The notes beneath the pieces were generated by a model. That model was not told the origin of the DNA, ran no database searches, and was given only the letters and a program-made list of their open reading frames with translations. Source: Candidatus Shapirobacteria bacterium (GTDB lineage Bacteria; Patescibacteriota; Microgenomatia; UBA12405). From it: DNA of 64,000 bases. Location of the stretch: the NCBI GenBank assembly GCA_041659325.1, contig JBAZYN010000001.1, forward strand, positions 131,428-195,427, written 5' to 3'. Both the position numbers and the translations under genes were made by a program. Below are positions 23,144 to 36,700 of this stretch, piece after piece. Numbering within the stretch: the first letter of the stretch is position 1; each line of letters opens with the position of its first letter.

Positions 23144-23146
23144 CGG

Positions 23147-23220
23147 TCGGGGTTACTGGATTCGAACCAGCAACCTCACGGACCCCATCCGTGCGCGCTA
23201 GCCAATTGCGCCAAACCCCG
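23147..23220 (-). tRNA. tRNA-Pro (anticodon GGG)
   Basis: Manual fold of the minus strand: acceptor CGGGGTT/AACCCCG, D-arm GCGC-AATTGGCTA-GCGC, anticodon arm CACGG-AT GGG GT-CCGTG, variable AGGTT, T-arm GCTGG-TTCGAAT-CCAGT, discriminator A. 74 nt. Confidence 0.85.
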
Positions 23221-34678: not shown

Positions 34679-35649
34679 AATCACATCGTGTAGAAATTTC
34701 CCTCAAAACCATTCTTTACGTTCTGGTCATCGCCCTTGGCGCCATCCTGGCATGGTACCTACGAGACATAATAATCCTTTTGGTTATCTGTTTTATCTTT
34801 ATGGAAGCTCTAAACCCAACCATAAATCATTTGCAAAAATATAAAATATCCCGAATATTAGCCATTATATTAGTATACTTTTTTATCCTTGCTCTGGTTG
34901 CTGTGGTGGTAGCGGGGGTCTTACCGGCGTTGGTCGAACAGACGGCCAGTTTGGCGGCCGCTCTTCCCGATATTATCAGAAACACCTCTCTGTTTGGCGC
35001 TTCAGCTGCAGACATTTCTAACCAATTCAAAATTCTTGAGAGTTTACCTGGCGATATTGCCAAGGCAATAGTTTCCGTATTTTCCAATATCTTTTCTCTA
35101 TTCCTAACCATGGTTATCACCTTTTACTTGTTACTTGAAAGGGAAAATTTTGACGATTATACTGCGAAATATTTTGGAGAAAAAAACAAGGCAAAAGTCA
35201 AGAAAATATTGGTTGATTTAGAGTCAAGACTGGGATCATGGGTAAATGCTGAAATCATCCTGATGGTTATCATCGGAGTAATGTCCTATGTAGGATATCT
35301 GATTCTTGGTCTGAATTTTGCCCTACCCTTGGCAATTATTGCTGGTTTTTTGGAGATTGTTCCAAATATCGGCCCAATTGTCTCTACCGCTCTTTCCGCC
35401 ATCGTAGGTCTGACCATCTCTCCGCTTACTGCCCTCCTCGCCATTGTCTGGGGGATAATCGTACAGCAAACAGAGAATAACTTTATTGTACCTAAAGTCA
35501 TGAAAACACAAATCGGACTTAACCCATTGGCCACCATCTTCCTTTTGGCAACCGGAGCGAAACTTGGTGGGGTTATGGGGGCTATCCTGGCTGTGCCCAT
35601 CTATCTGACCATCGACGTTATCTTCAAAGTCCTACGCGACAAACAATAA
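34675..35649 (+). CDS. AI-2E family transporter (UPF0118/PerM-like)
   Basis: 324 aa, ~8 TM. The conserved C-terminal NNFIVPKVMK...GLNPLA region fits AI-2E. Confidence 0.7.
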   Translation: MKSHRVEISLKTILYVLVIALGAILAWYLRDIIILLVICFIFMEALNPTINHLQKYKISRILAIILVYFFILALVAVVVAGVLPALVEQTASLAAALPDIIRNTSLFGASAADISNQFKILESLPGDIAKAIVSVFSNIFSLFLTMVITFYLLLERENFDDYTAKYFGEKNKAKVKKILVDLESRLGSWVNAEIILMVIIGVMSYVGYLILGLNFALPLAIIAGFLEIVPNIGPIVSTALSAIVGLTISPLTALLAIVWGIIVQQTENNFIVPKVMKTQIGLNPLATIFLLATGAKLGGVMGAILAVPIYLTIDVIFKVLRDKQ

Positions 35650-35654
35650 AACCA

Positions 35655-35948
35655 AAAACTCCGGACAAACTGTTAAGCCGATTTCTGTTTATGGGTTATC
35701 AATCTAGTCTCTTTACCTGGAGCTCCCAAAAACAAGGTACAAACGCCCCAATTTAAGATTTCCACCAGAAGGATGCTCGTTCCACCTCAGTCGACTGCAA
35801 CCTTTCGGCACAGAAGACGTCCTCGTCTCTATAGCATTGCCTTTAGCTTACGCCAAACCCTAATCTTCGGGTTCTGTGTTTTTTGTGGTTCGGACTTTCC
35901 TGCCCCCGCTGTTGCGGGAGCCAAACCCCTCAGTTTCTCCGGAGTTAG
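35655..35948 (-). ncRNA. rnpB: RNase P RNA (bacterial type, compact ~285 nt)
   Basis: Minus-strand read. P1 is CTCCGGAGAAACTG...CAGTTTGTCCGGAG (14 bp). P2 is GGGTT/AACCC. P3 is CTCCCGC-AACA-GCGGGGG. The P4 5' strand is AGGAAAGTCCG and the P4 3' strand is ACAGAAATCGGCTTA. The pyrimidine-rich plus strand contains only a spurious ORF. Confidence 0.7.
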
Positions 35949-35967
35949 TTTATTTTACACTCAAACA

Positions 35968-36144
35968 CTACTGAAGCAAAGCCGCATCAGCAGCAGAAAG
36001 AATCTTAAACATCTTTGTTCCGGTTTCCGGATCAACTGCTTCAGCAGCTGGTCTACCGTTTTTAAGCATTACCTTCTTTACCTTGCTTACGTCAACTTCG
36101 ACTGATTTTCTCGATTTGACGGAATAAAATTTAATAGTTGGCAT
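35968..36144 (-). CDS. hypothetical small basic protein (58 aa) upstream of rnpB
   Basis: Own translation: MPTIKFYSVKSRKSVEVDVSKVKKVMLKNGRPAAEAVDPETGTKMFKILSAADAALLQ. It is preceded by AGGAGGTGAAAGAAG-ATG, the strongest SD in the window. Not in the ORF track. Confidence 0.5.
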   Translation of the reverse strand: MPTIKFYSVKSRKSVEVDVSKVKKVMLKNGRPAAEAVDPETGTKMFKILSAADAALLQ

Positions 36145-36176
36145 CTTCTTTCACCTCCTGCGAATTTAATAAATAT

Positions 36177-36296
36177 TTAACGTCCAAGATCAATGTAGTA
36201 CAAAACTATGATTGCGCCGATAGACAACAGACTCAAGACAAAACTCTTCACCAAATCCTTTTTCAAAAACATAATCTCATTTTGAGTTTGATTCAT
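36177..36296 (-). CDS. possible 39-aa membrane peptide
   Basis: MNQTQNEIMFLKKDLVKSFVLSLLSIGAIIVLYYIDLGR. It sits directly upstream of the 58-aa ORF on the same strand, with a TATACT -10-like box upstream. Weak. Confidence 0.2.
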   Translation of the reverse strand: MNQTQNEIMFLKKDLVKSFVLSLLSIGAIIVLYYIDLGR

Positions 36297-36343
36297 ACCT
36301 AAACGCCAGTATAGCACAACAATTCTGCTACAATTAGTCAGGC

Positions 36344-36700
36344 ATGTCAACAGGTTTGTTTATCATCATTTCAATTAACTTTCTCTGGCTAGCGTATCTA
36401 ACGTTCATTATTTATAAAAAAAATAGCACCAAAACCGTGAATGTTGCCGGCTCTATTGTTCCTCCGGTCGGGACCAAAATAAATTTAATACGATTTAATC
36501 CATTCGAAGATTTGGGAGGAGATCAGAGTTTTATTCTTGTCATGTTGGACAACACAAATTCTGGTGTTATTATTACTTCATTGCACAGTCGCGATGTTAC
36601 GCGAACATACGCAAAGGCCATAAAAAACGGAGAAGGATACAATACTACTCTCTCTAAAGAAGAAAAAATGGCGGTTGTCAAAACCATTAATAATTATTGA
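36344..36700 (+). CDS. DUF4446-like membrane-anchored protein
   Basis: 118 aa with an N-terminal TM. FNPFEDLGGDQSFILVMLDNTNSGVIITSLHSRDVTRTYAK matches the DUF4446 pattern. Confidence 0.55.
   Translation: MSTGLFIIISINFLWLAYLTFIIYKKNSTKTVNVAGSIVPPVGTKINLIRFNPFEDLGGDQSFILVMLDNTNSGVIITSLHSRDVTRTYAKAIKNGEGYNTTLSKEEKMAVVKTINNY

Follow-up and report, generated by a model that had tools for sequence, protein, structure and literature searches.

Comparative evidence for a reduced bacterial type-A RNase P RNA in a Microgenomatia genome

RNase P contains an RNA that acts as a ribozyme and cleaves the 5' leader off pre-tRNAs. Among the structural classes of this RNA, type A typically has the helices P13/P14 and P18, which nevertheless stand outside its minimal consensus, and type B is marked by P5.1, P10.1 and P15.1. 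Reduced and diverged forms of this RNA were published in 2021 for bacteria of the Candidate Phyla Radiation (CPR) by Lui, Nielsen and Arkin (PMC8172020), who described CPR RNAs that miss P13, P14 and P18 and get low scores from the bacterial class-A model, and who found many CPR RNase P RNAs to be without P13, P14, P16 and P17. In the same work P12 was missing from the RNA of two Microgenomatia genomes, the motif for binding the CCA end of tRNAs was missing in about two-thirds of 35 CPR RNAs, and the detection of CPR RNAs with the Rfam family RF00010 required lowered thresholds (PMC8172020). A small RNase P RNA is also known from Mycoplasma fermentans, where it has 276 nucleotides (nt) and belongs to type B (PMC8172020). 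Here we describe the RNase P RNA gene (rnpB) found on the minus strand of a 64,000-nt stretch of contig JBAZYN010000001.1 (assembly GCA_041659325.1), which as a whole is called the window below, together with two small open reading frames (ORFs) upstream of it, and we compare this RNA with the described forms.

We are very confident that the locus is an rnpB gene belonging to a CPR bacterium from the class Microgenomatia, that its RNA has a bacterial type-A core from which P13/P14 and P18 have been lost, that it probably has a promoter of its own and that the gene for a 58-amino-acid (58-aa) protein upstream is a separate gene. An Rfam cmscan search of the whole window returned two RNAs, one tRNA and one RNase P RNA. 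The RNase P match runs over 35940..35663 of the minus strand, is full-length (model positions 1-288) and reaches 99.6 bits against a curated gathering score of 84 (E 1.3e-26), which places the RNA in the RNase P clan CL00002. This bears out an earlier note, which had read an RNase P RNA of about 285 nt from the minus strand of the window; from the start to the end of P1 we measured 286 nt. The same note had proposed a scan with the bacterial models RNaseP_bact_a and RNaseP_bact_b, and here the outcome is divided, as the match is significant but the top family is the archaeal RNaseP_arch (RF00373) and not a bacterial one. RNaseP_arch is the best family for most relatives too. As cmscan reports one best family per clan, the RF00010 alignment of a syntenic orthologue, locus L083, was taken as a proxy for the window RNA. 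L083 and a second syntenic orthologue, L084, score 125 bits on RNaseP_bact_a (gathering score 100), and the mean column identity between L083 and the window RNA is 76%; the more distant L094 reaches 49.6 bits on RF00010, which is below the gathering score of 100.

The comparative evidence comes from 80 loci, which were obtained by searching for the 58-aa protein family in a single genome for each GTDB species. With the window RNA as nhmmer query, 77 of these loci gave a homologue directly downstream of the small ORF and in the same orientation. The structure alignment holds 77 full-length RNAs, namely that of the window and 76 others, one RNA cut by a contig end having been left out, and it was evaluated by MAFFT alignment, RNAalifold and explicit pair counting on a hand-named structure. 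RNAalifold gave 58 pairs, 51 of them with compensatory changes, and recovered P1, P2, P3, P5, P7-P11, P15 and P16. The hand-named structure, which was written from the window sequence, adds P17 and the P4 and P6 pseudoknots; 93.0% of its cells are paired compared with 78.8% in shuffles and at most 53.6% in slid-partner controls, 64 of its 76 pairs have changed on both sides, and none of 500 shuffles reaches any of these measures. P4, with its conserved strands AGGAAAGUCC and ACAGAA..GGCUUA, is paired in every sequence and has two covarying pairs (one changes from C-G to U-A in 13 sequences, the other from G-C to A-U in 10), P6 is paired in 97-99%, each of its six pairs showing compensatory changes, and P15, P16 and P17 are paired in 95-100%. 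The strands that had been proposed for P2 (GGGTT/AACCC), P3 and P4 were all located on the minus strand; P1, put at 14 base pairs, is present but has a G-G mismatch (RNA positions 8/279) besides 13 standard pairs. A minimum free energy fold of the single window sequence (z = -3.4) reproduced the native fold solely at P1, P3 and P8 and was not used as structure evidence.

Altogether the window RNA has P1-P12, P15, P16 and P17, with the two pseudoknots, the P7-P11 cruciform and GNRA loops on P9 (GUAA) and P12 (GAAA). It thus carries what defines type A, that is P16, P17, the P6 pseudoknot and the GGU of the P15/P16 internal loop, to which the 3'-CCA end of the tRNA binds in RNAs of type A. The peripheral type-A helices P13/P14 and P18 are absent and no sequence is present for them, J12/13 adjoining the 3' strand of P11 directly and P15 adjoining J15/2 directly. 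The alignment of L083 to RF00010 gives the same picture, with 0 nt in the 43 P13/P14 model positions, 1 nt in the 25 P18 positions, and P16/P17 aligned. The loss of peripheral helices, which had been suggested as the cause of the small size, is therefore real as far as P13/P14 and P18 are concerned; P16/P17, which were under the same suspicion, are retained and covary. Judged from sequence and covariation, we regard the window RNA as a true, though reduced, RNase P RNA of the bacterial type-A family, whose helix losses give it the architecture of an archaeal type-A RNA, so that the shorter archaeal Rfam model scores best. Its predicted activity would be the removal of 5' leaders from pre-tRNAs.

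Some observations weigh against parts of this assignment. The score of the window RNA itself on RF00010 is masked by the Rfam clan competition in cmscan. Its P1 carries G-G at a pair where 71 of the 77 orthologues have G-C, and the P3 columns are paired in 53-57% in the MAFFT-based count, although they pair well in the register of RNAalifold; the low count arises because MAFFT misregisters this length-variable hairpin. The -35 element of the putative rnpB promoter matches at just three of six positions, for which reason a promoter scan did not list it. Finally, the protein gene rnpA was not found within the 64-kb window, either by tblastn with E. coli and B. subtilis RnpA queries or by a regular expression for the RNR motif.

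Across the clade the length of the RNA varies from 246 to 347 nt. By alignment-column count the P12 region, 37 nt in the window, is replaced by a 5-nt linker in 12 of the 77 orthologues, and these P12-less RNAs of 246-253 nt are found at L011, L012, L019, L022, L031, L051, L057, L066, L068, L070, L073 and L077. Two further orthologues have deletions elsewhere: the one at L047:2704-2961 is without the entire P8-P9 region, and the one at L013:2700-2945 is without 24 nt comprising J15/2, the 3' strand of P2 and the start of J2/4 and scores 83.1 bits, just under the Rfam threshold. Both could be real variants, pseudogenes or assembly errors of metagenome-assembled genomes. About 19 relatives (for example L001, L003, L025 and L059) share in P12 a hairpin module of about 24 nt, GCCGCCUUCGCAAGAAGCUACGGCG, which has a loop of GCAA and contains an asymmetric internal loop; the same module is found in P3 of about 6-9 relatives (for example L017 and L029), and L014, L033 and L040 have it in both places. 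The module, which is absent from the window RNA, has the look of a structural insert that can be transferred, or else of a conserved element for docking or binding.

Table 1: Features of the rnpB locus in window coordinates.
Feature	Position	Strand	Size or sequence	Basis or remark
rnpB, RNase P RNA	35659..35944	-	286 nt	Rfam RF00373 match and covariation
P1	35944-35931 / 35672-35659	-	CUCCGGAGAAACUG / CAGUUUGUCCGGAG	seen in sequence
P2	35928-35924 / 35697-35693	-	GGGUU/AACCC	seen in sequence
P3	35920-35903	-	CUCCCGC-AACA-GCGGGGG	seen in sequence
P4, 5' strand	35890..35897	-	AAG-U-CCGA, in AGGAAAGUCCG, conserved AGGAAAGUCC	pairs with UCGGCUU at 35675-35681
P4, 3' strand	35675..35681	-	in ACAGAAAUCGGCUUA	conserved region V; sequence and pair count
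P6, 5' strand	35878..35883	-	AAAAAC	J5/7; pairs with GUUUUU at 35728-35733
P6, 3' strand	35728..35733	-	GUUUUU	P17 loop (L17); pair count
P12	35790..35818	-	GUC..CUGUGCC-GAAA-GGUUGCAG..GAC	GNRA loop; read from sequence
GGU of P15/P16 internal loop	35715..35717	-	G228, G229, U230	invariant in 77 sequences
U-rich tail, probable termination signal	35644..35658	-	UUUUUGGUUUUAUUG	directly after the P1 3' strand
-10 box, putative rnpB promoter	35952..35957	-	TAAAAT	cross-species conservation
TTG-containing -35-like element	35974-35979	-	TTGCTT	in the last codons of the 58-aa ORF; 16-nt spacer
Gene of the 58-aa basic protein	35968..36144	-	58 aa	cysteine-less DUF5679 orthologue
Shine-Dalgarno sequence	36152..36159	-	AGGAGGTG	7 nt before the ATG of the 58-aa ORF
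39-aa ORF	36177..36296	-	39 aa	one hydrophobic helix; upstream of the 58-aa gene
Promoter-like sequence	36322..36350	-	TTGACA-17-CAGAAT	upstream of the 39-aa ORF; consensus 10/12, by pattern match
Spurious ORF	35773..36105	+	110 aa	antisense to rnpB and the 58-aa gene

Regarding its transcription, rnpB probably has a promoter of its own, a claim that rests on the conservation of the -10 box between species. In about 67 of the 77 loci a TAnnnT motif precedes the first base of P1 by 12-14 nt irrespective of the distance to the ORF, in variants such as TAAAAT, TATAAT and TAGAAT and often with a preceding TGn (TGnTAAAAT); about 7 nt separate the box from P1. Downstream of P1 a run of at least four T follows within 15 nt in 70 of the 77 loci. 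From this box transcription would probably start at or next to the first P1 base, and the transcript would probably end in the U-run after P1, which would terminate transcripts from the own promoter as well as those reading through from upstream. Such read-through from the 58-aa gene is possible in this genome because no terminator lies between the two genes, and it may add to the synthesis of the RNA. The sole tRNA gene of the window, tRNA-Pro(GGG) at 23145-23220 on the minus strand, is preceded by an extended -10 sequence TGGTAGAAT (upstream to 23240) of the same TGnTAnAAT promoter type as that of rnpB, which would give a very short 5' leader; the gene ends in ...ACCG and therefore does not fully encode CCA.

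The earlier note had suggested a small protein-rnpB transcription unit, and it could accordingly be asked if most of the rnpB RNA arises as the 3' portion of a polycistronic transcript with the 39-aa and 58-aa ORFs, from which it would be released by processing. All three lie on the same strand, only 23 nt without a terminator separate the stop codon (35968) from P1 (35944) in the window, the gap is comparably short (4-38 nt) in about 25 relatives, and the adjacency is retained in 77 of the 80 loci. We nevertheless consider this origin of the RNA unlikely, as the -10 box is conserved at a fixed distance from P1 whatever the length of the gap and a stable GC-rich hairpin followed by a T-run stands between the ORF stop and the -10 box in about 47 of 76 relatives. 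(Four short-gap loci, L003, L006, L008 and L009, were mis-parsed and are excluded from the counts of terminators and Shine-Dalgarno sequences.) Moreover, the flanking genes are kept equally well, with DUF3048 in 72, DUF4446 in 74, the AI-2E transporter in 70 and MiaA in 64 of the 80 loci, the same SecD...YchF block surrounds orthologues of the small protein that contain cysteines, and all seven rearranged or distant loci (L037, L079, L080, L088, L090, L092 and L094) are without an rnpB directly downstream. At L094 the RNase P match is located 2.5 kb from the small gene, beyond two genes of the opposite strand. The short gap without terminator thus stands, and some read-through in this window is plausible, but an obligatory protein-rnpB operon is weakly supported, and the adjacency is already accounted for by general synteny.

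The 58-aa gene itself is real, as had been proposed from its strong Shine-Dalgarno sequence, and probably well translated. Its protein has 111 close homologues with 70-93% identity and is 80-93% identical between species, and by eye AAGGAGGTGA, AAGGGGGTGA or a close variant stands before the start codon in the 72 correctly parsed loci; counted by script, AGGAGG occurs in 34 and a 5-mer Shine-Dalgarno match in 50 of 76 relatives. In the window AGGAGGTG occurs twice, a count that is not significant taken alone, with 27 of 100 shuffles reaching it. Against Pfam the protein gives 15.4 bits (E 0.021) for DUF5679 (PF18930), below the gathering score of 27, but a profile search starting from the 58-aa family reaches PF18930-positive proteins with 61-65% identity and E 1e-23, and precomputed PF18930 matches exist for the close homologues P0067 and P0091 and for all cysteine-containing orthologues. 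The latter are syntenic, being placed between DUF4446 and rnpB/AI-2E, and the CxxC...CxxC of P0117-P0123 corresponds to SxxS...DxxT (S8, S11, D38, T41) in the window protein. By homology and synteny we assign the 58-aa protein as an orthologue of the DUF5679 zinc ribbon that shares its descent and has lost the four cysteines. In distant lineages (L079:2501-4378, L088, L092 and L094) the DUF5679 gene stays beside the DUF4446-DUF3048 pair even without a nearby rnpB, which makes this pair its more constant neighbour. A literature search for DUF5679 yielded incidental mentions in which no function is reported.

For the 58-aa protein a fold of a five-strand barrel with a C-terminal helix is predicted, which resembles that of Cren7, and the protein is probably nucleic-acid-binding. 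Chromatin proteins of the Cren7/Sso7d type have an SH3-like five-strand barrel and bind and bend double-stranded DNA. The likeness to Cren7, the nearest solved fold, is one of predicted fold, there being no sequence similarity between the two proteins, and a sequence search of the PDB with the profile of the small protein gave as best match a fragment of the hantavirus nucleoprotein (E 0.02), which we judged to be due to chance. Archaeal type-A RNase P RNAs depend on extra proteins, and the 58-aa protein might in the same sense act as an RNase P cofactor or RNA chaperone that compensates for the lost P13/P14 and P18. Its likely nucleic-acid-binding fold, its very strong sequence conservation and the same-strand adjacency to rnpB, seen with cysteine-containing orthologues too, would agree with such a role. 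We hold it to be highly improbable all the same, with the whole block being equally syntenic, rnpB having its putative own promoter, a terminator intervening in most relatives and the pairing lost in each of the seven rearranged or distant loci. A functional link between small ORF and rnpB was consequently rejected as the main explanation of the locus, the flanking genes being equally conserved and distant contexts existing without an adjacent rnpB.

Further upstream, the 39-aa ORF is probably a real small membrane protein, judging from its hydrophobic helix and from tblastn, which in 52 of the 80 loci found it in the corresponding place on the same strand; at L083 a gene of 63 aa is called at this position. 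The possible transmembrane peptide noticed before can thus be kept.

The host belongs to the CPR bacteria, class Microgenomatia, and within it to the Shapirobacteria/Woesebacteria group: the neighbours of rnpB are the bacterial genes YchF, MiaA, AI-2E transporter and SecD, and the records of homologues bear the names Shapirobacteria, Woesebacteria or Patescibacteria. Many GTDB records with this Microgenomatia block (L001, L003, L006, L009 and others) are titled 'uncultured Gammaproteobacteria bacterium', and among L061, L037 and other records there is one 'Candidatus Methanoperedens sp.' and one 'Bacillota bacterium' title; these are likely placeholder names or mis-binned contigs.

The RNase P RNA of archaea works with the proteins POP5, RPP30, RPP21 and RPP29. 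As RNaseP_arch is the top family for the window RNA and for most relatives, and as an architecture without P13/P14 and P18 equals that of archaeal type A, the RNA might be of archaeal type, either acquired from archaea or lying on an archaeal contig. We give very little credence to such an origin. The genomic context, with SecD, MiaA, YchF and AI-2E flanking the gene, and all named homologue records are bacterial, orthologues at the same locus score 125 bits on RNaseP_bact_a and align with the window RNA at 76% column identity, and helix loss mechanically favours the shorter archaeal model.

It is scarcely credible, too, that only a degenerate rnpB remnant without function is present here and that the 5' processing of tRNAs is left to a second rnpB or to the protein-only enzyme HARP. 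The RNA is indeed small, stabilising helices are gone and P1 has a mismatch, but the conserved regions are all intact, many positions are invariant over the 77 species, compensatory changes in nearly every helix speak for an ongoing selection for the fold, and one copy is present at the conserved locus in each of these species. That the uninterrupted 110-codon ATG ORF on the plus strand is a real protein gene and the similarity to RNase P incidental has practically no chance of being true, and the dismissal of this ORF as an artefact holds, as it has no Pfam match, its equivalent frame is open over at least 100 aa in 3 of 76 relatives and closed in the other 73, it is not called in a public copy of the contig (run SRR18595301) in which the 58-aa ORF is called, it overlaps two strongly conserved features of the opposite strand, and the covariation tracks RNA pairing and not codons.

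The locus illustrates that a standard ORF caller can put a phantom gene of 110 aa over an essential ribozyme. It also illustrates that the rnpB of CPR bacteria is best caught by the archaeal Rfam model, and pipelines that use bacterial models only will miss or mislabel such genes. Our analysis adds a well-supported reduced type-A structure for Shapirobacteria-like CPR bacteria, with covariation of P4 and P6 over 77 species. The knowledge of RNase P as such is unchanged by it, the compact form without P13/P14 and P18 being typical of CPR bacteria and already published. The 58-aa protein may merit study as a candidate nucleoid or RNA-binding protein of CPR bacteria.

In comparison with the known systems, the RNA of Mycoplasma fermentans is likewise a naturally small bacterial RNase P RNA, but it is of type B and has no P12, whereas the window RNA is derived from type A and has this helix. 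With the archaeal type-A RNAs of RF00373 the window RNA shares an equal inventory of helices and it passes the gathering score of that family (99.6 vs 84), yet it is encoded in a bacterial genome and its orthologues score as bacterial class A. With the bacterial type-A RNAs of RF00010, such as the M1 RNA of E. coli, it has in common the P1-P12 core, the P4 pseudoknot, the GGU in the P15 loop, P16/P17/P6 and the bacterial host, and it differs from them in lacking P13/P14 and P18, in its length of 286 nt compared with the 367 positions of the model, and in that RF00010 is not its top-scoring family. Closest are the CPR RNAs described by Lui, Nielsen and Arkin (PMC8172020), which come from the same kind of organisms, Microgenomatia included, and show the same loss of P13/P14 and P18, and the loss of P12 reported there matches the 12 P12-less relatives found here. 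In contrast to the published examples that lack them, the window RNA retains P12, P15, P16/P17 and the GGU, and the covariation of P4 and P6 and the organisation of the locus are contributed by the present analysis. The window RNA is thus a further example of the published CPR type and, having kept P12, P16/P17 and the GGU, stands among the less reduced ones.

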